DNA of 64,000 nt, from NCBI GenBank assembly GCA_051439605.1, contig JBFRWN010000124.1, forward strand, positions 64,001 through 128,000, given 5' to 3'. Source of the stretch: Synechococcus sp. GTDB lineage: Bacteria > Cyanobacteriota > Cyanobacteriia > Thermostichales > PCC-7336. Below are positions 46,304-63,450 of the stretch, one piece after another. Position 1 is the stretch's first letter. Each line of letters begins with the position of its first letter. The position numbers were made by a program, and so were the translations under genes. The notes under the pieces are model-generated. The model was not told the origin of the DNA, did no database searches, and worked only from the letters and a program-made list of their open reading frames with translations.

Positions 46304-46768
46304 CTATGTGGGTTGGATAACTAATGTGTTGCAGCGTGCGTGATGCACGACATAGTTACTGACGCTACCCAGCATCAATTCGGTGAGTCTCGATCTACCG
46401 TGCCGTCCCATTACTATCAGATCGGTGTTCCTGTCTCGGGCAACGTCGCAAATAGTTCGGCCAGGATCTCCATATTTTTGGACAATCTCCGAATTCACAC
46501 CTGCAGCGCTGACTTTTTCTGCGTACTTTTGCAGCTTTTGCAAGCAAGACTGCTCGAACTCTTGCCACTTATGCTGAAACGTTAAAAAATCATCTATAAG
46601 AGAAGAAGGAGCATAAAAAAGATTTGGCGGAGCCCCTTCCTCCTCACCATACATAACGTGAAGCAGCGTTAATTCAGCTCCAGTTGCTTTAGCTAATTGC
46701 ACCGCCTTTTGAAAAATTGATTCGCTTGTTTTCGAGATATCCAGAGCGACAAGAATTTTTTGAATCAC
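46304..46768 (-). CDS. Universal stress protein
   Basis: QKILVALD.S, GDPG.TIC, IVMGRHGRS.L.ELMLGSVSNYVVHHARC. Confidence 0.95.
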   Translation of the reverse strand: MIQKILVALDISKTSESIFQKAVQLAKATGAELTLLHVMYGEEEGAPPNLFYAPSSLIDDFLTFQHKWQEFEQSCLQKLQKYAEKVSAAGVNSEIVQKYGDPGRTICDVARDRNTDLIVMGRHGRSRLTELMLGSVSNYVVHHARCNTLVIQPT

Positions 46769-48711: not shown

Positions 48712-49098
48712 ATGCGATGGGTAAAAGTGTTAGAGCAAGGCGCTCTGTCAGAGGGAATGCGACATGTCGTTAAGGTTGGCAAACTTTCAGTTCTTCTCCT
48801 CCAAGAAAAAGGAGAAATACTTGCTATGGATAGTATCTGTCCTCATATGAGAGGACCCATGCAAAAGGGAGAATTGACCGCAGATGGCGGTATTGTTTGT
48901 CCGTGGCATCGTAGTGTTTTCGATATACGTACTGGTGACGTCAAACAATGGTGCCCTTGGCCACCAGGTGTAGGAAAGGCATTGGGTGCAATTTCACGTG
49001 AAAAAGCTCTACCAGTTTTTCCCGTACGGCTGGAAGATGGGAGTATCTTGATTGGCCTAGATGAATCGAAGACTGAGGGGATTGGAAACTCCCTTTAG
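48712..49098 (+). CDS. Rieske [2Fe-2S] ferredoxin-like protein
   Basis: CPH...CPWH ligands, extra WCPWPP; GAGGAG RBS. Confidence 0.92.
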   Translation: MRWVKVLEQGALSEGMRHVVKVGKLSVLLLQEKGEILAMDSICPHMRGPMQKGELTADGGIVCPWHRSVFDIRTGDVKQWCPWPPGVGKALGAISREKALPVFPVRLEDGSILIGLDESKTEGIGNSL

Positions 49099-49152: not shown

Positions 49153-50406
49153 ATGGACGCCTACAACTCAGCTTTATACGAAAAGATTAAGCGTCTGATT
49201 GATTCCAATCCTCAGGGAAGAATCACTTTTGCCCAATTCATGGAGGTTGTTCTCTACAATCTTCGCCAGGGTTACTATTCCGCCCATGCAAAGAAAATTG
49301 GCAGTTATGGAGACTACTATACTTCTCCTCACTTAGGTCCTCATTTTGGAGAACTGTTAGCGGAACAGTTTTTCGATATGTGGCAGTCGCTCGGGTACCC
49401 TAACCCATTTTCACTGGTTGAAATAGGATCCGGTCAAGGGGTACTGGCTGGCGACATACTCATGTATGTCAAGAATCAATATCCGTTTTTCTTTCAGTGC
49501 ATACGTTATGTAATGATAGAAATCTCTCCTGAACTACGGTCTTTTCAGCAGGGACTACTACTCAGCGTTGATGGTTTAGGGGAAAAGATTCAATGGGTGT
49601 CTTTTGAAGATATATCTAAGAGTTCTATCGTTGGATGTATATTTTCCAATGAATTGGTGGACGCCTTTCCCGTTCATTTAGTTGAAGTCCGCAACAGACA
49701 GCTACATGAAATCTATGTATCGGCAAGTTCTGACACAAGCAATCTTACTCGTTTGCAGGAAGAAGTCGGCGAACTATCTACCTCGCACATAGCTAACTAT
49801 TTCAGTCGGTTAGGAACCAATTTGGAGTCAGACCTTTATCCAAACGGATATCGAAGCGAGGTAAATCTGGCGGCAATTGACTGGATAAAAATAGTGGCAG
49901 ATAAGCTCTTGCAGGGATATTTGTTAACGATTGACTACGGTTACAGCAATTCTCAGTATTACAGTCCGAAACGCCCTCGCGGGACTCTGGCTTGCTATTA
50001 CCGACATACCGTTCGCGATAATCCTTACCTGCTATTGGGTGAGCAGGACATCACAACCCATGCCAATTTCACAGCTTTGGAATATTGGGGTGAGTATTTT
50101 GGTTTGCAGAGGTTGGGGTTTACACGACAAGGACCTTTTCTAATGGCCCTCGGACTCGGGGAAAAAATGGCCGAGCTATCTCTACCCCAAGAGACGGCTC
50201 GCGGAACAAACATTCAAGAGATACTGCATCGCCGTCATGCCTTGCATTTATCGATCCATCCTCACGGACTGGGCAACTGGGGAGTGCTTATTCAGGGAAA
50301 AGGATTGAGTGAACAACAATTAGCTGTTCCTTTACGTGGATTGGCAAATGCTGCAGAGACAGCGGAGGATTGGTGCGCGATGCCTTTATCCCAGTCAGCT
50401 ACTTGA
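49153..50406 (+). CDS. SAM-dependent methyltransferase, MidA/NDUFAF7 (DUF185) family
   Basis: ITFAQFM..LY...GYY, GDYYTSP, EIGSGQG, SNELVDAFP, IDYG, QDIT.H.NF. Confidence 0.92.
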   Translation: MDAYNSALYEKIKRLIDSNPQGRITFAQFMEVVLYNLRQGYYSAHAKKIGSYGDYYTSPHLGPHFGELLAEQFFDMWQSLGYPNPFSLVEIGSGQGVLAGDILMYVKNQYPFFFQCIRYVMIEISPELRSFQQGLLLSVDGLGEKIQWVSFEDISKSSIVGCIFSNELVDAFPVHLVEVRNRQLHEIYVSASSDTSNLTRLQEEVGELSTSHIANYFSRLGTNLESDLYPNGYRSEVNLAAIDWIKIVADKLLQGYLLTIDYGYSNSQYYSPKRPRGTLACYYRHTVRDNPYLLLGEQDITTHANFTALEYWGEYFGLQRLGFTRQGPFLMALGLGEKMAELSLPQETARGTNIQEILHRRHALHLSIHPHGLGNWGVLIQGKGLSEQQLAVPLRGLANAAETAEDWCAMPLSQSAT

Positions 50407-50465: not shown

Positions 50466-51452
50466 TTAGAGATAAGTCGTTGACGCTGCGTACATTTCCG
50501 CCAAAAGCTCGCTATGTTTGCTAGCCAACCAACGCTCCGCATCCATCGCTGCCATGCAGCCCGTTCCCGCAGCAGTTACGGCCTGGCGATACACGCGATC
50601 CTGTACATCGCCACAGGCAAATACACCGGAAATGCTGGTTTGGGTTGAGTGAGGCGCAGTCACGATGTATCCCTTGTCATCGAGTTCCAGCCATCCCTTG
50701 AACAAATCGCTATTGGGTTTGAGCCCGATTGATACAAATACTCCATCGAGTGTCAAAACTCTGATTTCGCCCGAGACAACATTTTCCAACTGGATGGCTT
50801 CAACCGAGGGGTTACCCAGAATATCGCGCACGACCGTATTCCAAATAATGGTGATGCGATCGTTTTCGAACAACCGTTGCTGCATAATTTGGCTGGCTCT
50901 TAGCCGATCGCGGCGATGAATCAGATACACGTGACTGGCCGTACGGGTGAGCAACAGCGCATTTTGGACGGCTGTGTCTCCCCCCCCAATCACGGCAACC
51001 GGGACATCTTTGAAAAATGCACCGTCGCATGTAGCGCAGACTGACACACCTCGACCGAGCAACAAACGCTCGCTCTCTATACCCAAATATCGGTGAGTAG
51101 CCCCTGTTGCAATGATGGCGGTATCGGCCAAGAGCAGGTCCTTGCCATCAACGGAGATCAGAAAAGGCCATTCCTCAAAATTCACCCGGGTGACGATGCC
51201 AAAGCGCCGATCGGTGCCAAAGCGAGCGGCTTGCTGCTCGAACACGCTCATCAATTCAGGTCCCAAGATTCCTTTGGGAAAGCCAGGGTAGTTTTCAACA
51301 TCACTGGTTGTCATCAACTGTCCACCCGGCTCTGGCCCTCGAATCAGCAAGGGGTGCAAGTTAGCCCGCGCAGCATAAATAGCAGCAGTGTATCCTGCTG
51401 GACCCGCTCCAATGATGACAACGTGTCTGCGTTCGTAGCGCGAGACTGTCAT
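50466..51452 (-). CDS. trxB: NADPH-dependent thioredoxin reductase
   Basis: GAGPAG, GGQL.TT.DVENYPG, CATCDG, GGGDTA, HRRDRLRA, GDVQD..YRQA.TAAG.G. Confidence 0.96.
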   Translation of the reverse strand: MTVSRYERRHVVIIGAGPAGYTAAIYAARANLHPLLIRGPEPGGQLMTTSDVENYPGFPKGILGPELMSVFEQQAARFGTDRRFGIVTRVNFEEWPFLISVDGKDLLLADTAIIATGATHRYLGIESERLLLGRGVSVCATCDGAFFKDVPVAVIGGGDTAVQNALLLTRTASHVYLIHRRDRLRASQIMQQRLFENDRITIIWNTVVRDILGNPSVEAIQLENVVSGEIRVLTLDGVFVSIGLKPNSDLFKGWLELDDKGYIVTAPHSTQTSISGVFACGDVQDRVYRQAVTAAGTGCMAAMDAERWLASKHSELLAEMYAASTTYL

Positions 51453-51453
51453 T

Positions 51454-52224
51454 TCACGATTTCACCTCCTTTGGTGCTTGAAGGGTAATTGCTTCGGCAG
51501 CCTTTACCTGCCATTCCGCCGGGTAAATTCCCGCATCGATCAGAGCTTGAGGTGGAGCTTTGCGGGTGGGAGATTCCAAATATTCCGGTGTGACGGCGGG
51601 GGGAACGGGAACGAGTTGGTGAGCAATGGTGTAGTAGCGGTGGGTTTGAGCCAACTTGCCGCGATCGCTCAAATCTTCTCCTGCAATTTTCTTGCGCAAC
51701 TTGACGATGGCGTCAAACATGGCCTCCGGACGTGGCGGACATCCGGGCATGTAAACATCGACGGGGATTAACTTATCGACGCCGCGCACTGCCGAGTAGG
51801 AGTCGGTGCTATACATCCCTCCCGTAATCGTGCAGGCTCCCATGGCAATCACGTATTTGGGATCCCCCATTTGGTGGTAGAGCTTCACCAGTGCCGGAGC
51901 CATCTTCATGGTGACTGTTCCGGCTGTAATGATGAGATCCGCTTGCCGCGGGCTGGAGCGGGGCAACAGACCGAACCGATCGAAATCGAACCGAGGCCCC
52001 AGGAGGGATGCCATTTCGATAAAGCAACAGGCTGTCCCGTAGAGTAGAGGCCACAGGCTAGAGAGGCGGGCCCAGTTGTATAGGTCGTTAACGCTGGTCA
52101 AGATGACGTTGTGACTCAGCTCCTTAGTGACCTGCGGTGGCCCAACAGGGTTGATGAGGCTGCTGAATGGTTTTTCCTTGACCTCTGATTGATTGGTCGC
52201 AACTGTCGGTCGATCGGTATTCAT
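51454..52224 (-). CDS. ndhK: NDH-1 subunit K (probable second copy)
   Basis: [32 protein letters not shown] (N2 ligands); cyanobacterial C-terminal THRYY. Confidence 0.95.
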
Positions 52225-52250
52225 GGATCCTCCTCAGACAGAGGTAGATG

Positions 52251-53435
52251 CTAGCGGTCTACCTCGCCCATAATGATGTCAATGCTGCCAAGAATGGCAA
52301 TGATATCCGCCACCTTCATTCCCTTAACCAATTGGGGTAAAACCTGAAGGTTGATAAAACCAGGGGGACGAATTTTCCACCGCCAAGGAAAGATGTTTGC
52401 ATCACCCATGAGATAGATACCGAGTTCACCTTTCGGGGCCTCCAGGCGCGCGTATACTTCTCCCTCCGGGAATTTGAACATCGGTGAAGTCTTCTTGCTC
52501 GCAAACTGATATTGAAAGTCACTCCATTCCGACTTGGGACCTCCCATCATCCGCTGGGCTTCTAGATTCTCGTAAGGACCTCCAGGCAGTCCGGCGATCG
52601 CTTGTAAAACAATCTTGGCGGACTCCCGCATTTCGTTGATGCGGACAAAATACCTGGCCAGACAGTCACCGCCCGTTTCCCAAACCACATCCCAATCGAA
52701 ATCGTCATAGCACTCGTAATGGTCAACTTTTCGCAAGTCCCATTTCATGCCTGAAGCCCGTAGCATCGGACCTGAAACCCCCCAACCTATTGCATCTTCG
52801 CGACTGAGAGTGCCGACACCTTCGGTGCGCATGCGGAAAATAGGGTTATCGGTAATCAGCCGTTCGTATTCATCGACTTTGGGTATGAAGTAGTGGCAAA
52901 AATCTTCAACTTTATCAACCCAACCGTAGGGAACGTCGGCAGCCAGTCCACCAATACGGAAGAAGTTTTGCCCGACCATTCGCATCCCCGTGGCGGCTTC
53001 AAATAAGTCGTAAATCAGTTCTCTTTCTCGAAAGATATAAAAGAATGGAGTATGAACTCCCAAATCCGAGCAAAAGGGTCCCAGCCACAATAGGTGATTG
53101 GCAATGCGGCTGAGCTCAAGCAAGATGACCCGCAAGTAGCTCGCCCGTCTGGGTACGGAAATATCGGCAAGTTTTTCAGAGGCGTTGACGGCAATCGCCT
53201 CGTTCCACATGGCTGCAGCATAATCCCAACGGGTTGTATACGTGATGTATTGTATTGCCGTACGATTTTCGGCAATTTTCTCCATTCCGCGATGTAGATA
53301 CCCGACAATGGGGGTGCAATCGACGACATTTTCGCCATCTAAAGTGACTAGCATGCGGAAAACACCATGGGTGGCCGGGTGATGCGGCCCCATGTTGATG
53401 ACCATCTGGTCGAGCTTGGTTTCGACAACTGTCAT
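52251..53435 (-). CDS. ndhH: NDH-1 subunit H (probable second copy)
   Basis: [33 protein letters not shown]-terminal [12 protein letters not shown]. Confidence 0.96.
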
Positions 53436-53650
53436 GAACTCAGCGGCTTAGCTTCCGCGCTAAACGGGATTGCAGGTTTTGAAACTCGATGCTGCTCGAG
53501 AACTTTTAAAGGCATACTGAGAGCTTGAATGTAGACAAGCGACTGTACCTTCAGGGATTTCGATGTCGATACAGCAGTTTGACTCAGAAAAGACAGATAT
53601 TCTACGGAGTAGCTTCAAACTTGCCTAAAACTCCTCTCCACCCAACCTTA

Positions 53651-53694
53651 TTGCCACAACTTCTTTAGAGGCTTGCTACAACTTCTGTTAGAGG
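53651..53694. repeat. Tandem imperfect direct repeat (21/22 bp) upstream of ndhH
   Basis: TTGCCACAACTTCT-TTAGAGG c TTGCTACAACTTCTGTTAGAGG. Confidence 0.8.
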
Positions 53695-54143
53695 TCTCGT
53701 TTCACTAGGCTTTATCCTACATACAGTTTAGTATTTTCAAAGATAGACTGCTAATGCTGGCCGGGAAGTGTCAAAATTTTTACCCTAGTCGGCTATTGTA
53801 TACAGAACAGTATTCATTAAAGTTATGATGTATTAATTAATATCATTTATTTCTCTTGTGCCTGCCACGAACATTCCCAATCTTTAGGAAGCCAGTTGGT
53901 AGACATTCCTTACTGTAAATATTTCATGCTCTCGGTGCGATTTAAAATCCACCTCTGAAATAAATTTAACTTCAGCTTAGAAGGCAATACAATTTTCAGC
54001 TTGCTAACATCAATATTGGCTAATAGAAACAAAAAACTCTTTCGAGCAAATAGGCAACTTTGTATCGTATAGCTTTAATAGATCTACAATAACTCTACAG
54101 GAAAGCTCCTGTCAGACAACATCAAATCAGGAAGGTTGTTCTC

Positions 54144-54344
54144 ATGGAATACATTATAGAAATTCTGCAGCATGCGATCGTACAGATCCTTGGCTTATTT
54201 CTGTTGGCTGCTATACTTAGAAAAATAAATAAATTTTTATCTTTCATAAGTGTCGATCTTGTGATTCTAATAGACTTTGTCTTAATAATAGTATTTATGA
54301 TTTCATGGTACTATTTTATTAGTAGGAATATAGTCTTCACATAG
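54144..54344 (+). CDS. Small two-TM membrane protein (paralog of 47944-48147)
   Basis: GGAAGG RBS-like; two hydrophobic helices; about 19/63 identities without gaps to the 47944 ORF. Confidence 0.75.
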   Translation: MEYIIEILQHAIVQILGLFLLAAILRKINKFLSFISVDLVILIDFVLIIVFMISWYYFISRNIVFT

Positions 54345-54767
54345 TATTTTTTGTTAGTTTTTGCTGGAATATCGTATTGAAATCAGATTTAATTACTGTA
54401 TTGTTTCTGCTTTATGCTGTCTCATTCAGAAATAAGAGCCACGTCTAGCTAGAAAGCCGTAGTTTTCAAAATCTGACCACAATGCTTTTTGAGTAAGGGC
54501 TTTAACCCCTAAGAAGGTCTGCAGAAAAACCAGCTCTCTGAATGCATACTTTTGTAATAGTATAGAGAGACTTTCAGAATCGATCTTCTATAATTAATGT
54601 AGAGTATTGTTGGTAAAGTTTGCAGACGGTTTCATTTGAAACGCATGACTCACCACAATACATTTCCTCTGTCTGTTTATAGAGCTTCAACACACTACAG
54701 AGGCAAGCGTATTTTAGAGATGAAACCAACAGGCACATCCCTACTCAGCTAGAGTTAGGAGGACGAG

Positions 54768-55253
54768 ATGACTATTAACCATCAATTTGATAAAGGCCAG
54801 ACAATAAACCAGCTCAACCGGATACTGGAATCGGAACTGGCTGGGGTGGTGCGCTACACTCACTACTCCCTGATGATTTTTGGCTACAATCGCATTCCAA
54901 TTGTGTCGTGGTTCCGATCCCAAGCGGACGAAACCCTGATTCACGCCCAGCGAGCAGGAGAAATGGTAACGCATTTAGGCGGACATCCCTCGCTAGCTAT
55001 CGGGTCGCTGCTGGAAACCCACAAACACGATATTGGGGAAATTCTGCGGGAGACAATCGAGGCAGAATTTAGGACGCTGCAGCTGTATTACGGATTGCTT
55101 GAACTGGTGGAAGGCAAGTCCGTGCCGATTGAAGAATATGCCAGGGAGTTGATAGCTGCAGAAGAACAGCACCTGGATGAAATTGACAAAATGCTGCGGC
55201 GACCTGGACATATTGAGGTGAGTGAGGAGGCAACGGCGATCGCAAACTCATGA
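54768..55253 (+). CDS. Ferritin-like / bacterioferritin-family protein
   Basis: LN.ILE.ELAGVVRYTHY, DETLIHA, EEQH di-iron motifs; AGGAGG RBS. Confidence 0.88.
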   Translation: MTINHQFDKGQTINQLNRILESELAGVVRYTHYSLMIFGYNRIPIVSWFRSQADETLIHAQRAGEMVTHLGGHPSLAIGSLLETHKHDIGEILRETIEAEFRTLQLYYGLLELVEGKSVPIEEYARELIAAEEQHLDEIDKMLRRPGHIEVSEEATAIANS

Positions 55254-55993
55254 CAATCCAGGCTCTGTTTCAATCAATGTGTTGATGAAGACTTACTAAG
55301 CTTCTTGGTGATTCTAGGAAATATCTCTGATAATTGTAGTATGGCTGATCGAGCGAGTGAATTTTTCGAACTTGATTGCAAGAGTTTCGAAAAGGTTCGT
55401 CATAGCGAGGATTTTGCTGTTTATCCCACGAATTGCTCCCAAAGGAGAATGACGTTAGGGAAGTAAGTGGCGGATCAATTGTTTGTTTTCGTCTGGCCTT
55501 TTTTTGTGGTGCAAGGTTTTTGTCTTTTTCCTTGCTTTACGATCGCTTATAGAGTGCGAAACCACTCGATAGAACAGCTTGAGCCGATCGACACGATACA
55601 TTCCTTATAGATGAAGTAACGCCCTTGAGGGGTTGCAATCTTTGGACTTCAATCTAGGGGAGCGGAATTCCTGCTCCCTTGCTCGCTTGGAGTAGGATAA
55701 GCAAAAAGCATAATTTTGTGAAAAGGCTACTACAATTATTCCTATCCGAGGTAGAAGAAAACAGCATTTGGGTTGGTATGGAAAAGGCATGGGACCTCAA
55801 TAGCCAATCTCAGGAGCGCCAGAAAGTGAGGCCGACATGAATCGGACAGCCTGGAGGTAGCGCAAACGTTTTATGGATTGCTGATATCGATTCGTTGATA
55901 ATCTCTACAATAGAGTCTGTTTATCAAAACATTTCACGGCAGCAGTTTCAACCTCCTTGCAATCAACTACAAGTATAAAGTAGAGGTAGAAAT

Positions 55994-56338
55994 ATGACTG
56001 CAAATATCACTGATACAAAAAAAATAACAAAAGAACAGGCCATAATAGCTGTACTAGAGGCCGAGAAAAAATCAAGATATGCCATTGAAAAATGCAAATC
56101 TGAAGAAGATAAAATAATGCAAGAAGCACGCCAGAAGTCCCAGAAAATTATAGAGCGTGCCGAGCAACGTATGGCGCAAATTCATCGGATTTGCAATCAA
56201 TTAAGCACCAATGAAGTGAATCGAACTGAGCAAGAAGCTGAGGAACATGCTAAGCAACTACTTTCATGTGAAATAGATTTTAAGATAGCAACAGTCGTGG
56301 TTGAAAAAGTTGCAGAGATGTTGACTGAAGAACTCTAG
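55994..56338 (+). CDS. V/A-type ATPase peripheral stalk subunit G/H-like
   Basis: VLEAE...EARQK...I.ERAE coiled coil; first gene of the V/A-ATPase operon. Confidence 0.7.
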   Translation: MTANITDTKKITKEQAIIAVLEAEKKSRYAIEKCKSEEDKIMQEARQKSQKIIERAEQRMAQIHRICNQLSTNEVNRTEQEAEEHAKQLLSCEIDFKIATVVVEKVAEMLTEEL

Positions 56339-56371
56339 GTCTAAGGTATATAAAAGCTTTTGGTCGTACTC

Positions 56372-57133
56372 ATGTTGAAAGACTTTATCTATATTCAAAC
56401 TCGACTTCAAGCTCGGCATGGTATGCGCCCCGACAACCAAGAATGGCAGATTCTGGAAAGTCAAAAAGATCTAGCGGCTTTTTTGCACAGTGCACGCCAT
56501 ACTCGTCTGAAGCCCTGGGTACTCAGTCTGCATGCAAGCGACAATCACCACGTACTAGAAACAACACTACGCCAACTTTACTGCAATTATGTGGATGAAG
56601 TCGAACACTGGATGCCCTCGGTATGGCAAGCATCAGTGCGGTGGGTAAAGTACCTACATTATTTGCCTTCGCTTCAATATCTATTGTCTGGCAATATAGT
56701 CTATGCCTGGATGTTGGAAGATCCACAACTTAAAGAGTTGACTGGAACTAATGTAGAAACACGTATCCAAATTCTGCGCCAGTCTGCATATGCTCCACTC
56801 ATCGATCCTTGGCAGTCAGGAAAACCGCTGTTAACAGCTTGGACCGAACATTGGCGATCGTTATGGCCCGATCAAAACAACAATAGATCTATAAATAAAT
56901 TGATTTCATCAATCGATGGGCATCTTTTTAAATTTGGGCAGATCTCATCTCATCCGGGGAGAAAAAGCCGCGAGATATTTACTGCCAAACTATCTATCCT
57001 ATTTCGCCAGTTCAGTTATCAGCCGGTTGCTGTTTTCATCCATCTAGCACTTATTGCTTTAGATGTTGAAAGGTTGCGCAGTAATATTCTGCAGCGTTGT
57101 TTATTCGATCGTTCTAAGGTTGTGCTGCTATGA
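56372..57133 (+). CDS. ntpC: V/A-type ATPase subunit C-like
   Basis: Y.Q.RLQARHG...W..L; overlaps subunit I start; operon position. Confidence 0.65.
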   Translation: MLKDFIYIQTRLQARHGMRPDNQEWQILESQKDLAAFLHSARHTRLKPWVLSLHASDNHHVLETTLRQLYCNYVDEVEHWMPSVWQASVRWVKYLHYLPSLQYLLSGNIVYAWMLEDPQLKELTGTNVETRIQILRQSAYAPLIDPWQSGKPLLTAWTEHWRSLWPDQNNNRSINKLISSIDGHLFKFGQISSHPGRKSREIFTAKLSILFRQFSYQPVAVFIHLALIALDVERLRSNILQRCLFDRSKVVLL

Positions 57134-58950
57134 CATTCAGGCCTGTTCCAGCCCGCTGGTTTGAAGTAATCGCGACTCAAGAGGATTTACTCAGCGCGTT
57201 AGACATCCTGCGAAAAACTGGAGATATCGAATTGGAAATTCATAGTGAAATGCCTCGTCCCACTACAATTACTAATCTACAAAATCGTTTGGAAGGCTTT
57301 AATCAGCTTGCACGTCAATATCGAGCCTATTGGCCCAAACCTAATCCTCACGCTACGAAAGTAGTTGGTTTACCTGGCGAATGCTTAGATAGCGCCTTAG
57401 AGAAATTCAGCCTCTGGAGGCAGGCAGCCGATTCGCTAGTTGAACTCATTGAGGAGTTAGCGAGCGAACAGGATGACTTGTTATGCCTGTCGGAGTTTTT
57501 ACAGAAACTGCAAGGTGAAGAATTAGATTTCGCCAACCTCGCACGTGCAGGGCCTATCCTTTGCGCACGCTTATTTGTATTTCCATTTACAACTCAGATC
57601 GAACATTTGCCTACTTCAGCACTATCTATTCAAGTTCCGACAGACGAACGTATCTTTTTGTTAATAGTTGGGGAAGTTGAAACAGTTGATGGCTGGCAAC
57701 GGGATTTATTATTGCAGAAAGGTCGCGCTATTACATTGCCTAACTGGCTCAATGGTAAACGGACAAATGTTGTTGCCCAGGTAGAACAACGGAAAATCCA
57801 GATTCGCGAGAAATTGACGTTGCTTAATGCACAGCTGGATACCATTGCTACAAAACATCATTTGCCAGGAGTGTTGAGCGAGATACGGCAGATTGAGTGG
57901 TTTATTACTCATGCGAGTAATTTACCTGTTTCAGACAATTTTGCCTGGATCACGGGTTGGACCAGCGATATTTCTAGCGATCGACTCAATGAGGCCTTGG
58001 AAGCTGCATCTGTTCGTGCTGTGGTTCATTATCCACCGCCGCCAGTAGAGGCCAAGCCACCCATGGTGTTACAAAATCCCTGGTGGTCAAAACCCTTTGA
58101 GCTATTTGCCAAACTGTTGGGTATACCCTCCACCAACGAAATCGATCCTTCCATGTTTCTCGCATTGATTGTGCCATTGCTATTTGGCTACATGTTTGGG
58201 GACGTTGGCCAAGGTTTTATCCTGATGGTTGCTGGTATTACTATGCAGCGCCACTTTCCAATGCTCAAACTTTTAATAGGATGTGGCTTATCGGCTATGG
58301 TGTTTGGCCTGGTATTCGGGAGCGTGTTCGCTAGTGAAACAATTATTAACCCTTTATGGGTCAATCCTATCAACTCTCCCTTGTCTGTATTGTTCGTTCC
58401 TTTAGGAGGTGGTGTAATCCTGCTGCTATTGGGGCTTGCCTTTAGTGGCGTGCAGGCTTACTGGCAAGGTGAACTGAAAAACTGGTTGCTCAAAGAGGCT
58501 GCTACGATCGCAATATACATCGGGATTGTCGGAAGCGTTTTTCATCTGATTATCAGCATACTGATATTAATTGGGGGGATTTGGTATGTTGCAGGCAGCT
58601 TGTGGTTGACTGACAATCCTTCTCCCAAAGCTCTGTTACCTGTGCTAGGTCAGCTCCTGGAAAGTGGACTGCAATTAATTATTAACACGATTTCTTTTAT
58701 TCGGGTCGGTGCATTTGCCTTAGCCCACGCAGGACTTTCATTGGCATTCATTATCATGGCTGACGCAACTGGCAATGTCCTTCTAGCTGGAATCATTATA
58801 CTGATTGGAAATATTGTCATTATTCTTTTAGAAGGTCTGGTAGTCTCGATTCAAACCACCAGATTGATACTGTTTGAATTTTTCATTCGGTTTATGCGAG
58901 GCACCGGTCGCATGTTTCATCCGTTAGCCATATCTTCAGAATCATCATGA
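57130..58950 (+). CDS. ntpI: V/A-type ATPase subunit I (a)
   Basis: ITGW, P..L.NP.W.KPFE, EIDPS, FGYMFGDVGQG, NTISFIRVGAFALAH, IQTTRL..FEFF. Confidence 0.95.
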   Translation: MTFRPVPARWFEVIATQEDLLSALDILRKTGDIELEIHSEMPRPTTITNLQNRLEGFNQLARQYRAYWPKPNPHATKVVGLPGECLDSALEKFSLWRQAADSLVELIEELASEQDDLLCLSEFLQKLQGEELDFANLARAGPILCARLFVFPFTTQIEHLPTSALSIQVPTDERIFLLIVGEVETVDGWQRDLLLQKGRAITLPNWLNGKRTNVVAQVEQRKIQIREKLTLLNAQLDTIATKHHLPGVLSEIRQIEWFITHASNLPVSDNFAWITGWTSDISSDRLNEALEAASVRAVVHYPPPPVEAKPPMVLQNPWWSKPFELFAKLLGIPSTNEIDPSMFLALIVPLLFGYMFGDVGQGFILMVAGITMQRHFPMLKLLIGCGLSAMVFGLVFGSVFASETIINPLWVNPINSPLSVLFVPLGGGVILLLLGLAFSGVQAYWQGELKNWLLKEAATIAIYIGIVGSVFHLIISILILIGGIWYVAGSLWLTDNPSPKALLPVLGQLLESGLQLIINTISFIRVGAFALAHAGLSLAFIIMADATGNVLLAGIIILIGNIVIILLEGLVVSIQTTRLILFEFFIRFMRGTGRMFHPLAISSESS

Positions 58951-58966
58951 AAATGATAAGGAGGAA

Positions 58967-59323
58967 ATGGTCATGATTTCGCACAATAAACATCTATTTA
59001 TTTTGCTCAAGATTACCCTCTCGATCGCTATAGTGGGTGCCACACTTTTTTGGCTAGAGCCAACAATGGCAGCGACTGTTACTACAGATAGTTTAATATC
59101 ACCCGAAATTGTCCAAGCAAGTTATTTCTCTGCTGCATTAGCAACAGGTCTTTCTTCACTTGGTGCAGGCATTGCTGTAGCTTCAGTAGGGAGCGCTGCT
59201 ATAGGGGCATTAGCAGAAAAACCAGAGTTGTTAGGCCGCGTATTAATCATGGTTGGCCTTGCAGAAGGCATTGCAATCTACGGGCTGATCGTATCTATCC
59301 TAATTTTGAATGAAGTTATTTAG
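58967..59323 (+). CDS. ntpK: V/A-type ATPase proteolipid subunit K (c)
   Basis: GAGIAV..VG.AAIGA.AEKPE...GLAEGIAIYGL. Confidence 0.93.
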   Translation: MVMISHNKHLFILLKITLSIAIVGATLFWLEPTMAATVTTDSLISPEIVQASYFSAALATGLSSLGAGIAVASVGSAAIGALAEKPELLGRVLIMVGLAEGIAIYGLIVSILILNEVI

Positions 59324-59324
59324 A

Positions 59325-59621
59325 ATGAGTGCACCGATTTTTATTGGCGATGAAATTAGCGCTGCAGGTTTTCGGCTAGCAGGCGTAGAGACTCGAACAC
59401 CAAACCCTGATGAACTTCCAAATCTAATCAAGTGGGCTTGTGTTAATACATCTCTGTTATTAATTACTGCGGAATATGCAGCTATGTTGTCCGCAGCAGA
59501 AAGACAACGTTTGCTGTGCCAGGAAATGCCTTTGGTCGTGACGATTTCAGATATTTGCGCTAAGACTCCCTTACCGGATTTAGTGACTGAATTACGATCG
59601 CAACTAGGAGTCTTAGCATGA
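59325..59621 (+). CDS. V/A-type ATPase subunit F
   Basis: IFIGDE.SAAGFRLAGV...LITAE...QLGV. Confidence 0.9.
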   Translation: MSAPIFIGDEISAAGFRLAGVETRTPNPDELPNLIKWACVNTSLLLITAEYAAMLSAAERQRLLCQEMPLVVTISDICAKTPLPDLVTELRSQLGVLA

Positions 59622-60259
59622 ACGCATCATCCAGCATCGTTCACACACAAGTCGAGCGTTTACTCGATGTCGTGCAGAGATATCAACAACAGCAATGCGA
59701 CAAGATCGTCACTCGGGCTACAGCGGAAGCCGAGCAGATGATTCATCAGACTTATCGAGATGTCCGTCTTCGTTTACACCAGGAAATTCTAGACAGTCGC
59801 GATCGCCTGCAGGGGAAGATTTCAGCATCCAAGGCGAAAAGCCATACCCTCCGAAAAAAATACCAACACGAAGCAGACCGCCGCTATTTGGATCGGGCTT
59901 GGGATTTGCTGAAGGTTAAACTGATCGAACGCTGGCAGAACAAAGAATATCGGCAGCGATGGGTGCAAAAACATTTAGTAGAAGCATTGAGGCTTTTAAT
60001 TGGCCCAGAGTGGTTAGTTGAACATCCGCATAGTTGGACTGTGGATGAACAGCAGCATTTTATTCACCAGGTCAGGGATAAATGTGAGGTTGTTGTTAAT
60101 TTTTCTGCATCGCCAGATATTGTTGCCGGTGTTCGCATTTGCGCCAATGGAGCAACGATCGATGGCACTTTGCAAGGACTGTTGGCGGATCGGTCGCGAA
60201 TTGAGTCTGAATTATTAGCGCAATATCATCAGTATATTTTGTGTGGCAGTGGGTCATAA
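59618..60259 (+). CDS. ntpE: V/A-type ATPase subunit E
   Basis: N-terminal coiled coil, C-terminal I.AGVRI...IDGTL..LL; position before subunit A. Confidence 0.8.
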   Translation: MNASSSIVHTQVERLLDVVQRYQQQQCDKIVTRATAEAEQMIHQTYRDVRLRLHQEILDSRDRLQGKISASKAKSHTLRKKYQHEADRRYLDRAWDLLKVKLIERWQNKEYRQRWVQKHLVEALRLLIGPEWLVEHPHSWTVDEQQHFIHQVRDKCEVVVNFSASPDIVAGVRICANGATIDGTLQGLLADRSRIESELLAQYHQYILCGSGS

Positions 60260-60302
60260 CAAATCCATCTAATTTGTCAAAGCGGGAAGCGAGGCAGTTG
60301 TT

Positions 60303-62060
60303 ATGAGTACAGCAAGCATTACCTGGATCGGCGGACCAGTTTTGCATGCACAGACAGCAGATATTTTTCATATCAATGAAGCTGTGGTGGTAGGTGCACA
60401 AAAACTGTTGGGCGAAGTCATTCAAATTAAAAGCCAGGAAATCGTCGTTCAAGTGTACGAAGATACCAGCGGTTTACGGCCAGGTGATGTGGTAATTGGC
60501 TACGGTAAGCCCCTTTCCGTAAAACTTGGGCCGGCATTACTGGGAAACATCTTTGATGGTTTGCTAAGGCCCTTAGTGTCGGTAGGCGGCACATTTATCC
60601 AGCCTGGCACGATCGAGCCTGTTCCGAAATCTTTTCATTTTACGCCCAAGGTTAAAACGGATGAATTATTAGCTAGTGGAAGCATCATGGGCACCGTTCG
60701 ATCGGAATCGGGACAACTGCAGCATTGCCCGATCCCGCCAAATGTCAGTGGAATTGTCACCGACGTTGTTGAGCCGGGCGAATATAGCGATGAACAAACG
60801 GTTTGCGTAATAGAAGATAGCCAGAAGAACCGACACGAAATTGCCATGAGCCATTGGTGGCCCGTGCGTCAACCCCGACCCTTTGCCGAACGATTACCCA
60901 CCCTCGGTCCACTGTTGACCGGTCAACGCATCCTAGATTCTATTTTCCCGCTGGCAAGTGGCGGACGTGCGGCGATCCCCGGTGGTTTTGGGACTGGCAA
61001 AACAATACTATTAGAGACTCTCGCCAAATGGTGCGATTCTGACGTCATCTTATATGTTGGTTGCGGAGAACGTGGCAACGAGATGGCCAGTGTGTTGCAC
61101 GAACTGCCCCAATTAGAAGACCCCCGTACTGGCCGACCTTTAATGGAACGTACAGTTATTATTGCCAATACCTCCAATATGCCGGTAGCTGCAAGGGAAG
61201 CGAGTATTTACACCGCGGTGACAGTTGCTGAATATTTTCGAGATCGAGGATTGCGGGTTGCGCTCATGGCAGATTCCACCACCCGCTGGGCAGAAGCGCT
61301 ACGAGAAGTGTCCGGCAGGTTGGGTGAAATACCTAGCGAAGCAGGCTATCCAGCCTATCTAAGCAGTCGGTTAGCTGATTTTTACGAACGTGCTGCTTAC
61401 GTTCGCACAGCATCCGACCAGATTGGCTCGTTAAGTATTATTGGCGCGGTAAGTCCGCCCTCTGCTGATTTTTCTGAACCAGTGACCATCCACACCAAAC
61501 GTTACGTGCGGGTGTTTTGGGCGTTAGACCCCAATCGCGCTCAGGCGCGATTTTATCCGGCGATACACCCTTTGCAATCCTATTCAGGGGATCTGACCGA
61601 GCTCGTTTCATTCTGGAAAGAACACAATCATCCCCAATGGCTAGAACAACGCCGACGTTTCCTGACCTTTCTAGAAAAGCAAAGCCGCTTAGAACGAATA
61701 GCGCGGATTGTGGGTAAAGATGCTTTACCCACAAGGCAACAGCATATTTTGTTATGTGCTGACTTGATTAATGAAGCGTTTCTGCGTCAATCTGCATTTT
61801 CCCAAGTCGATCGGTATTGTTCTCCAGAACGTCAGGCAGCCATGATGAAATTAATTACGCGGTTTATCGATCTTTCACTGGAAGCGATCGAACAACAAGT
61901 AGACATCGAATCGATTACAAATCTGCCATTGTTGCGTCGCTTACGCCGAATGAACGAAGATCTGGGTGAGGACGACATGGAACAATTTAATGTCTTGCGG
62001 GCTGATATGGAAAATGCATTTGGCAAACTGATGAAACAGAGAACGAGCGATGCTAGCTGA
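60303..62060 (+). CDS. ntpA: V/A-type ATPase catalytic subunit A
   Basis: QVYEDTSGL, WPVR.PRP, PGGFGTGKT, GCGERGNEM, NTSNMPVAAREAS, GYPAYL.SRL..FYERA. Confidence 0.98.
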   Translation: MSTASITWIGGPVLHAQTADIFHINEAVVVGAQKLLGEVIQIKSQEIVVQVYEDTSGLRPGDVVIGYGKPLSVKLGPALLGNIFDGLLRPLVSVGGTFIQPGTIEPVPKSFHFTPKVKTDELLASGSIMGTVRSESGQLQHCPIPPNVSGIVTDVVEPGEYSDEQTVCVIEDSQKNRHEIAMSHWWPVRQPRPFAERLPTLGPLLTGQRILDSIFPLASGGRAAIPGGFGTGKTILLETLAKWCDSDVILYVGCGERGNEMASVLHELPQLEDPRTGRPLMERTVIIANTSNMPVAAREASIYTAVTVAEYFRDRGLRVALMADSTTRWAEALREVSGRLGEIPSEAGYPAYLSSRLADFYERAAYVRTASDQIGSLSIIGAVSPPSADFSEPVTIHTKRYVRVFWALDPNRAQARFYPAIHPLQSYSGDLTELVSFWKEHNHPQWLEQRRRFLTFLEKQSRLERIARIVGKDALPTRQQHILLCADLINEAFLRQSAFSQVDRYCSPERQAAMMKLITRFIDLSLEAIEQQVDIESITNLPLLRRLRRMNEDLGEDDMEQFNVLRADMENAFGKLMKQRTSDAS

Positions 62061-63450
62061 TGTCAGTACACGGGGGACAGCCACCCGAATCGAAGGTCCA
62101 CTTCTATTTTTGAAACGCAACCTCAACGTGGGTTTGAATGAAGCCGTGGAGGTGCTAGATACGAAAGGTCATGCGCGTTTAGGCCGGATTGTAACGCTGG
62201 ATGAAGATCGGTTGATTATTGAAGTGCTGGAATCCACCAGTGGTTTGGCGTTATCCAATATCAAAGTCCGCTTTTTGGGTGAACCCTTACATTTTAATGT
62301 GGGGCCCGATCTGTTAGGTCGCATCCTCGATGGGGTCGGACGTCCGTTAGATAGTGGTCCACCCGTTTCATCGCTACAACGTTTGCGGATTGATGGTTTG
62401 CCGCTAAATCCTGCCGCACGATCGAATCCTACGGACTTTATTGAGACTGGCATCACGACGATCGATTTAATGAATAGTTTGGTGCGCGGACAAAAGTTAC
62501 CTATTTTTTCCGGTGGAGGCTTGCCTCACGAACGCATTGCCACGCACATCGCTCAGCAAGCTCGCTTGCGGGGTGAAGCTCGTGGAGAATTTGCGGTGGT
62601 ATTTGTTGCGATTGGCGTTTCGTACGATATAGCGGAACAGTTTCGCCGAGCTATGGAAGAAAGTGGTGCCTTGGAACATACGGTTTTATTTCTGAACCTG
62701 GCATCGGATTCCAGTACCCAACGTTTGCTTGCACCCCGTTATGCATTGACGGCGGCGGAGTATTTGGCATTTTACGAAGATAGACATGTTCTAGCGATCG
62801 TGACTGACATGACTAATTACTGTGAAGCATTAAGGGAAGTCTCCGCCAGTCATGGTGAAATACCTAGCCGCAAAGGATATCCAGGTTATATGTATTCCGA
62901 TCTAGCAAACCTCTTTGAACGCGCGGGATGTATCCAGGGGAAAAAAGGTACCTTGACTCAGTTGCCGATCTTAACAATGCCTGCTGATGACATTACCCAT
63001 CCCATTCCAGATTTGACCGGATATATTACTGAGGGACAAATAGTTTTGGATCGTGAACTCGATCGCCGGGGGATTTATCCACCTATAAAAGTTTTACCCA
63101 GTCTTTCCCGCCTAATGAAAGATGGGATCGGTAAGAACTACACCCATGTGGATCATCCAGCGTTAGCGAACCAATTATATGCAGCCTATGCGCGTTCGGT
63201 GCACGCGCGGGTTCTAGCCAGCGTCATGGGTCAAGAAAGTTTATCAAAAGTTGACCGTATCTTTTTGCAATTTGGCGATCGGTTTGAAAACCAATTGGTA
63301 AGACAGGATCGTCCACGTACCCTGGAGAACAGTATGGAAATAGGTTGGCATCTATTACAACAGTTACCCATCGGCGAATTAACCCGTTTAAGCGATCGGC
63401 AGATTCAGCAGCATATAACGAATGGAGTAGCACACCATGCTAGTCAATGA
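62050..63450 (+). CDS. ntpB: V/A-type ATPase subunit B
   Basis: RGQKLPIFSG.GLPH, TDMTNYCEALRE, GYPGYMYSDL, DDITHPIPDLTGYITEGQI, LPSLSRLM. Confidence 0.98.
   Translation: MLADVSTRGTATRIEGPLLFLKRNLNVGLNEAVEVLDTKGHARLGRIVTLDEDRLIIEVLESTSGLALSNIKVRFLGEPLHFNVGPDLLGRILDGVGRPLDSGPPVSSLQRLRIDGLPLNPAARSNPTDFIETGITTIDLMNSLVRGQKLPIFSGGGLPHERIATHIAQQARLRGEARGEFAVVFVAIGVSYDIAEQFRRAMEESGALEHTVLFLNLASDSSTQRLLAPRYALTAAEYLAFYEDRHVLAIVTDMTNYCEALREVSASHGEIPSRKGYPGYMYSDLANLFERAGCIQGKKGTLTQLPILTMPADDITHPIPDLTGYITEGQIVLDRELDRRGIYPPIKVLPSLSRLMKDGIGKNYTHVDHPALANQLYAAYARSVHARVLASVMGQESLSKVDRIFLQFGDRFENQLVRQDRPRTLENSMEIGWHLLQQLPIGELTRLSDRQIQQHITNGVAHHASQ

Follow-up and report, generated by a model that had tools for sequence, protein, structure and literature searches.

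A second, divergent ndhH-ndhK pair in Synechococcus sp. that probably encodes an alternative quinone-reduction module of NDH-1

The genes for NDH-1 subunits H and K can stand next to each other and apart from the other ndh genes, as they do in a 64,000-nucleotide stretch of Synechococcus sp. (assembly GCA_051439605.1, contig JBFRWN010000124.1, positions 64,001 to 128,000; below, the window, whose coordinates are used throughout). What would a cyanobacterium do with such a pair? Here, three intact open reading frames (ORFs) on the minus strand, ndhH2, ndhK2 and trxB, form one tight operon. An earlier note, made from the DNA sequence, had described ndhH and ndhK as 26 nt apart with a GAGGAGG ribosome-binding site and trxB as following 1 nt later, and both the ORFs and the sequence bear this out: the trxB ATG begins 1 base after the ndhK2 stop, and an AGGAGG lies within the ndhK2 3' end. 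As the note had also stated, neither ndhC and ndhJ nor ndhA and ndhI were found near the operon within the 64-kb window. The products, called H2, K2 and TrxB here, belong to Pfam families PF00346, PF01058 and PF07992, respectively. K2 is set between ndhH2 and trxB and not in the usual cyanobacterial ndhC-ndhK-ndhJ context, which is held by its canonical counterpart, K1; this is a feature of context, not of the protein.

The canonical genes were both found in the genome. On the contig that carries the operon, ndhH1, followed by ndhA, lies approximately 16 kb onward, slightly beyond the end of the window, and its product, H1, is 75% identical to H2; ndhC-K1-J lies on another contig (C98), and K1 is 73% identical to K2. 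The proposal that the window holds a paralog pair, and not the only copies, is therefore correct, and the motifs that the note gave as canonical are those carried by H1 and K1. In a genome search, H and K gave two copies each and NdhA, NdhC, NdhJ, NdhG and NdhE one tblastn hit each. H2 and K2 are genuine paralogs beside the canonical genes, and among the core subunits tested only these two quinone-site subunits are duplicated. Both also score as full members of their families. H2 matched the NdhH equivalog NF005649 over residues 1 to 394 of 394 (742.3 bits; cutoff, 583; H1, 770.9), and K2 matched the NuoB subfamily NF005012 (244.5 bits; cutoff, 116; K1, 244.1) and TIGR01957 (218.6 bits; cutoff, 142.7; K1, 220.0).

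We asked where H2 differs from canonical NdhH. H2 aligned without gaps to residues 3 to 394 of the solved T. elongatus NdhH (6HUM chain H), so residue numbering transfers. According to the structural paper (PMC6358722), His23 and Tyr72 of NdhH contact the plastoquinone head group, Asp124 is the partner of His23, cluster N2 is held by the tandem Cys of NdhK and two further Cys, and the residue at position 155 of NdhH, Asn, is expected to influence the potential of N2. H2 keeps His23, Tyr72 and Asp124, as well as Arg49. The canonical set for comparison was made up of H1 and the 120 best database hits, less nine hits that the tree placed in paralog clades or in the cluster of H2 itself (n = 112). 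In this set, 216 columns reached a conservation of 95% or more, and H2 departed at 14 of them and H1 at none; the changes are therefore not shared with the lineage's own ortholog. All 14 departures (residues 21, 26, 41, 65, 67, 77, 82, 101, 105, 123, 127, 158, 168, and 176) lie within residues 21 to 176, none is one of the three ligand residues, and 6 fall no more than 5 residues from His23, Tyr72 or Asp124 (Fisher P = 0.001). Around N2, H2 has Gly155/Gln156, with Asn155 replaced by Gly, and the invariant Tyr158 is Phe. In the alignment with T. thermophilus Nqo4, Thr22, Thr65, Thr67 and Leu105 of H2 are the Nqo4 residues, and all four residues from 64 to 67 are the same. The earlier note had located the changes in motifs of the quinone chamber, and by sequence position the departures do cluster around the published quinone-site residues and N2 ligands. 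Its second NdhH motif needs a correction of detail: the last residue of the motif is indeed the ligand Tyr72, but the Tyr within "ITYT" does not have that role.

NdhH also varies in length near residue 155. The canonical NdhH of this lineage (H1, L002:1501-2682), those of Gloeomargarita-like genomes and those of plants are one residue shorter there. These shorter proteins retain a His that aligns with the His pair in Nqo4 of T. thermophilus; Asn-Asn is found at this place in crown cyanobacteria and Gly-Gln in H2. Such variation may be relevant to the published proposal that N2 is tuned by position 155.

K2 showed a similar combination of retained ligands and altered surroundings. It keeps the four N2 cysteines, Cys66, Cys67, Cys131 and Cys162, which are invariant in the NdhK alignment, and departs at 7 of the 129 columns conserved in 117 canonical NdhK (Met71, Ser73, Pro77, Tyr138, and positions 169, 213, and 233). 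Met71, Ser73 and Pro77 lie just past the tandem Cys66/67, and Tyr138 lies seven residues past Cys131. None of the 117 canonical proteins has Met71 or Pro77, and together with Ser73, Tyr138, Pro213 and Ile233 these residues define the K2 subtype. In the alignment, Met71, Pro77 and Tyr138 are the residues of mouse NDUFS7, whereas T. elongatus and plant NdhK have Phe, Ser and Phe. The resemblance of the Met and Pro to respiratory proteins, which had been remarked on from the sequence, is supported by this match to the mitochondrial protein.

To judge whether the pair is maintained, we turned to metagenomic relatives. Two metagenomic proteins of 256 aa, P0122 (87% identical) and P0123 (85%), are closer to K2 than is any canonical NdhK (at most 79%), and both keep six of the seven K2-specific residues. 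The core of these proteins (residues 30 to 200) is 95% identical to that of K2, and the N- and C-terminal tails are 52 to 79% identical. Natural variants on metagenome contigs changed 22 codons of ndhH2, 17 of them synonymously and 5 by conservative replacement, and 4 codons of ndhK2 (3 synonymous and 1 replacement). Because the natural variants are mostly synonymous and the K2-specific residues are kept in orthologs, these data indicate that ndhH2 and ndhK2 are under purifying selection and not in decay. The operon is present in marine-sediment metagenome runs from three to four studies, which also bear on the soundness of the assembly. Contigs of run X1, which may be the source sample, bridge methyltransferase-trxB-ndhK2 with no differences, and also ndhK2-ndhH2. 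A contig from a different study (X3, record 21) bridges trxB-ndhK2 and does not cover the ndhK2/ndhH2 junction; one from X4 reaches only approximately 7 nt into ndhK2 and was not counted as bridging. Run X4 contains a relative that is approximately 90% identical across pieces of ndhH2, the only closer relatives of H2 seen.

Taken together, these observations suggest that the locus probably encodes an alternative NDH-1 quinone-reduction module. H2 and K2 would take the places of H1 and K1 on a shared NdhA/C/J scaffold, the most likely arrangement given that the other core subunits tested are single copy. The earlier note had likewise proposed that both quinone-site subunits are replaced together, and with only H and K duplicated this is the simplest reading of the sequence evidence. 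The resulting NDH-1 isoform would have a remodeled quinone site and N2 surroundings, shifted partly toward the residues of respiratory complex I, and it may differ in quinone or redox behavior and be expressed conditionally. Encoded in one operon, the two matched subunits could be delivered together by cotranscription and coupled translation. As a whole, the earlier interpretation is partly supported, its weaker parts being the place given to trxB and the premise about the usual gene order, both taken up below, together with the conjectured change in quinone handling or directionality and its link to darkness or low O2.

How often do second copies occur elsewhere? Among 40 relatives, of which 3 belong to the same genus, none had a second ndhK. 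Two ndhH matches were obtained in 21 out of 300 further genomes from across the class; in a sample of the phylum, 14 other genomes of the class had two ndhK matches. The gene context was opened for 15 of the 21 genomes with two ndhH. The second ndhK was solitary in all five genomes opened for it (G069, G095, G119, G122, and G182). Second copies of both genes lie together in four further lineages. In G330 and G543, the second ndhH is directly followed by the second ndhK, with unrelated genes downstream and no trxB; in G437, the two lie within 2 kb of each other. NdhH trees contained two well-supported paralog clades in crown cyanobacteria and lineage-specific duplicates in families f58 and f52. 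Across six paralog lineages, 12 conserved columns were hit by at least two lineages, compared to 5.2 expected (P = 0.0014). Two of these columns, Phe77 and Ala123 (the latter adjoining Asp124), were each changed in three paralog lineages, and the f58 copies have the same Pro65-to-Thr change as H2. In the literature searched, we found no description of paired NdhH/NdhK paralogs, only a review table naming NdhK2 and papers using the name NdhK1.

Two of these lineages have features of their own. In family f52 (L232 of G437 and L225 of G465, a genome of the same genus as G437), the second-copy cluster includes ndhK with an ndhJ-like gene after it, along with the methyltransferase gene and the second ndhH, and the arrangement differs between genomes; G465 is similar to G437, with the ndhJ-like gene after the second ndhK. 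Three peripheral-arm subunits may therefore be duplicated in this family. In G471 (L085, G471:C15), two ndhH lie in tandem on one strand, and the downstream copy falls in a paralog clade in which Cys-Phe precedes the conserved Arg of the beta1-beta2 loop.

One genome goes further. In G457, the sole ndhK lies 52 nt downstream of the sole ndhH, whose product is identical to P0006, and ndhC is directly followed by ndhJ across a 93-nt gap with no ndhK between them (L223, C17; L242, C10). Since G457 has only the ndhH-ndhK pair, such a module can be the sole quinone module of a cyanobacterium. The premise that cyanobacterial ndhK sits in ndhC-K-J with ndhH apart fails in this genome. Adjacency of ndhH and ndhK is rare but not unique, being found in G330, G543 and G457. 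G441, a congener of G457, has an ordinary ndhC-K-J, and the two genomes are 83% identical in NdhH and 74% in NdhK. Among 80 metagenomic ndhK loci, which did not include that of protein P0127, none had ndhH followed by ndhK; in 1 of the 80, ndhH lay 1.3 kb away on the opposite strand.

The gene that faces the operon offers a further link to complex I. Its product matched PF02636 (E = 6.8 × 10−69) and the solved mitochondrial NDUFAF7 homolog 5ztz_A (E = 1.3 × 10−15), as well as 1zkd (DUF185) and 4f3n. The Arg49 that H2 keeps presumably corresponds to Arg85 of NDUFS2, by residue count from bovine numbering (His59 and Tyr108). In mitochondria, according to PMC3829151, NDUFAF7 methylates Arg85 of NDUFS2 during complex I assembly. 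The window thus resembles the NDUFAF7 (MidA)/NDUFS2 system in having a PF02636 neighbor that matches 5ztz and an H subunit that keeps the arginine; it differs in that the cyanobacterial family is not known to act on NdhH, its link to ndh genes being one of genome position. PF02636 was found in 87 of 101 sampled cyanobacterial genomes and was not found in families f5 (0 of 5 genomes), f31 (0 of 5) and f57 (0 of 2); with the window protein as the query, the methyltransferase was not found in any of the 5 closest relatives. In the best-scoring genome of each family, PF02636 lay no more than 7 kb from ndhH or ndhK in 4 of 28 families: after ndhC-K-J in f2, the organism's own order; after ndhH in f15; next to the second ndhH in f52; and, in G457, downstream of ndhH-ndhK in convergent orientation, with a gene order equal to that of the window minus trxB. 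Coordinates point to further linkage of PF02636 to ndh genes in f4 and f26. We found no papers on the PF02636 family or on NdhH arginine methylation in cyanobacteria in the literature searched. The linkage suggests Arg49 of NdhH, a conserved residue, as a possible target of the methyltransferase, and it makes testable whether NdhH is arginine methylated in photosynthetic NDH-1. In G457, the convergent methyltransferase gene overlaps the 3' end of the sole ndhK.

A broader and more speculative proposal, to which we give limited credence, would join these observations. Interchangeable NDH-1 quinone-site cassettes, made of ndhH-ndhK and often with an NDUFAF7-type methyltransferase nearby, might retune the plastoquinone pocket and N2 toward respiratory-type chemistry, arise or move repeatedly, and be able to replace the canonical genes fully, as in G457; the widespread cyanobacterial NDUFAF7 homolog would then methylate NdhH Arg49 as an assembly step.

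Several points weigh against an alternative quinone module at this locus. The pair is absent from three same-genus and two same-family genomes and is therefore dispensable in close kin. Among 5.8 billion proteins, no H2 ortholog of more than 78% identity was found besides H2's own cluster, and truncated H2 orthologs beside P0122 and P0123, sought among short fragments, were not found either (best, 73%). The codon count draws on 31 of 278 variant sites (40 were listed), and the contigs may mix strains. The windows of the enrichment test around the quinone-site residues were picked after the motifs were seen, the comparison sets were the 120 best hits to the query, and nearness to the quinone site and N2 is judged from sequence position and published ligands. 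Gene conversion, instead of independent duplication, could account for the within-genome grouping of some paired copies. The runs listed as carrying the operon include no RNA run, which says nothing either way on expression.

One alternative is that the pair is a functionally redundant duplicate in an ordinary NDH-1, its substitutions reflecting neutral or mildly deleterious drift that followed the duplication or transfer. The absence of the pair from close relatives, the lack of H2 orthologs in the large protein database and the long terminal branch of H2 (0.55, compared to 0.035 for H1 and a median of 0.13) would all fit this explanation. Drift would not be expected, however, to leave natural variation mostly synonymous, to fix the novel residues of K2 across orthologs of 85 to 87% identity while their tails diverge, to concentrate substitutions at the quinone site and N2 with every catalytic residue kept, or to change the same columns in independent paralog lineages, and we consider redundancy quite improbable. 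Less probable still is that H2 and K2 work outside NDH-1, in a different complex such as a soluble or otherwise anchored redox module with thioredoxin reductase. Such a complex would explain why the gene layout, with 1 nt between ndhK2 and trxB, points to cotranscription with trxB, and why the operon stands apart from all membrane-subunit genes. Yet along their entire length H2 and K2 share 73 to 77% identity with canonical subunits, and they score on family models like H1 and K1; there are no paralogs of other subunits and no other partner genes; trxB is unlinked to H-K pairs elsewhere; and G457 has only the H-K pair with an otherwise ordinary ndhC and ndhJ.

A third alternative concerns where the pair came from. 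In outgroup-rooted trees, built from subsets of rows, H2 and K2 fell inside the cyanobacterial radiation, with a backbone that lacked resolution; their respiratory-like states therefore look derived, not retained, and an ancient, pre-cyanobacterial paralog with ancestral residues was rejected as the leading explanation on the same ground. It is possible, though we think it unlikely, that ndhH, ndhK and the convergent methyltransferase gene are a cassette acquired horizontally from a lineage with a native arrangement like that of G457 and are on the way to replacing the native genes, which would make the pair a xenolog and not a condition-specific isoform. The shared gene order, save for the inserted trxB, suggests as much, as do the loss of the canonical ndhK from between ndhC and ndhJ in G457 and the fact that H2 is without the one-residue deletion marking its own lineage, its closest state being that of P0006, the NdhH of G457. 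A free tree joined H2 with P0006, although weakly (Shimodaira-Hasegawa-like approximate likelihood ratio test [SH-aLRT], 82). The methyltransferase, not found in the five closest relatives, also fell outside its own order's clade in a careful tree. That tree gave no resolved sister, however, and did not reject grouping with the own order (approximately unbiased [AU] test, P = 0.528); a quick tree was unreliable, since holding the window and G457 copies together scored 21.5 log-likelihood units above the free search (AU P = 0.813). Moreover, H2 is no closer to P0006 (75% identical) than to other NdhH, and K2 is 68% identical to the K of G457, with which the K2 clade was joined in the best tree with zero support. 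Grouping of H2 with its own lineage was not rejected (AU P = 0.546), and one tree made the canonical K proteins of the organism's order the sister clade of K2 (SH-aLRT, 90). The GC content, overall and at third codon positions (GC3), of ndhH2, ndhK2 and trxB lies inside the spread of the genome, so composition gives no signal of transfer; the methyltransferase gene has a GC content approximately 1.9 standard deviations below the genome. The same AU result, the sister position of K2 and the native composition speak for an old duplication within the lineage. Same-genus synteny yielded only scattered gene-level matches (70 to 77% nucleotide identity), and the borders of an island could not be drawn. 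In any case, transfer is a statement about origin and is compatible with an alternative quinone module as the function of the pair.

An alternative quinone module would have parallels among known systems. According to PMC7021789, NdhD and NdhF paralogs on a single-copy core give the functionally different complexes NDH-1L, L', MS and MS'. The combination of alternative paralogous subunits with a single-copy core is what we propose for H2 and K2; the known complexes vary the distal membrane module, whereas the subunits in question here, NdhH and NdhK, are placed in the common NDH-1M core by that paper. With the respiratory NuoD/Nqo4/NDUFS2 and NuoB/Nqo6/NDUFS7 proteins, the pair shares the fold, the quinone-site His, Tyr and Asp, and the N2 ligands, and K2 positions 71, 77 and 138 and H2 positions 22, 65, 67 and 105 are respiratory and not photosynthetic in type. 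H2 nonetheless scored 340 bits there against 706 bits for cyanobacterial proteins, and at 155/156 it has Gly/Gln and not the respiratory His. Another second NdhK is known from Synechocystis, encoded by slr8031, a gene that we take to be plasmid borne. It appears as "NdhK2" in a review table that cites only unpublished work for it (PMC7058544), beside the NdhK1 of ndhC-K-J, and the solitary second ndhK genes of G069, G095, G119, G122 and G182 are similar to it. These copies differ from ndhK2 of the window in having no adjoining ndhH and in encoding Phe and Ser where K2 has Met71 and Pro77. Alternative D1 (psbA) isoforms of photosystem II are quinone-site subunit paralogs exchanged under particular conditions; the complex is a different one, and the comparison is an analogy only.

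The diversity of cyanobacterial NDH-1 is now explained by alternative NdhD/NdhF membrane modules on a common core. A matched NdhH/NdhK pair, if its proposed role is true, would mean that the catalytic quinone site itself comes in versions, and it would provide natural variants for finding the residues that govern quinone affinity, the potential of N2 and coupling in enzymes of the complex I type. Since independent paralogs repeatedly alter the same quinone-site columns, particular positions suggest themselves for mutation. The locus is most aptly classed as an addition to NDH-1 isoform diversity, and the broader pattern as one of recurrent quinone-module paralogs and NDUFAF7-family linkage.

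The third gene of the operon does not appear to belong to this pattern. TrxB scored 385.7 bits on the equivalog TIGR01292 (cutoff, 343.45), and its translation carries CATC and HRRDRLR, which we take to be the CxxC redox pair and the NADPH-site HRRxxxR of thioredoxin reductases; both the family model and the motifs mark it as an ordinary reductase of the NADPH type. A second trxB in the genome (G000:C81:72511-73494) is 73% identical to that of the window, and no fused NTRC-type copy, the class of approximately 52% identity found in most other relatives, was seen in this genome. One relative, G001, has a solitary trxB ortholog (77% identical); other relatives have the longer fused form (approximately 52%). 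The earlier note had counted trxB into the module. The H-K pairs of G330, G543 and G457 lack it, and the G001 ortholog stands alone; trxB is not a conserved partner but a local passenger or a local regulatory addition outside the conserved module. Coordinates of the operon and its immediate surroundings are listed in Table 1.

Table 1. Features of the ndhH2-ndhK2-trxB locus in window coordinates
Feature	Position	Strand	Description
ndhH2	52251..53435	-	394 aa; second, divergent NDH-1 subunit H (49-kDa/NuoD homolog)
ndhH2-ndhK2 spacer	52225..52250	-	26 nt; GAGGAGG ribosome-binding site 4 nt ahead of the ndhK2 ATG; read directly; bridged by an X1 contig (record 6)
ndhK2	51454..52224	-	256 aa; second, divergent NDH-1 subunit K (PSST/NuoB homolog)
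trxB	50466..51452	-	328 aa; low-molecular-weight thioredoxin-disulfide reductase; one of two in the genome
Convergent methyltransferase gene, PF02636 (Methyltransf_28), NDUFAF7/MidA family	49153..50406	+	417 aa; ends 59 nt from the trxB stop
Noncoding stretch 5' of ndhH2	53436..54767	.	1.3 kb; presumed promoter bearing; nothing above chance

In a scan for promoters and terminators upstream of ndhH2, counts were about those expected from shuffled sequence, and an Rfam scan gave no match within or upstream of the operon. Further along the window, a V/A-type ATPase operon (55994-63450, plus strand) encodes subunits I, K(c), F, A and B, as identified by Pfam. Ahead of it lies a match to the Rfam small RNA CyVA-1 (55397-55473, plus strand; 40.7 bits; E = 1.4 × 10−6), just below the gathering score of 41.4. 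The ndhH2-ndhK2-trxB operon is also flanked by three small stress or redox genes, at 48712-49098 (plus strand), 54768-55253 (plus strand) and 46304-46768 (minus strand), for a small soluble Rieske [2Fe-2S] protein, a ferritin-like protein and a universal stress protein.

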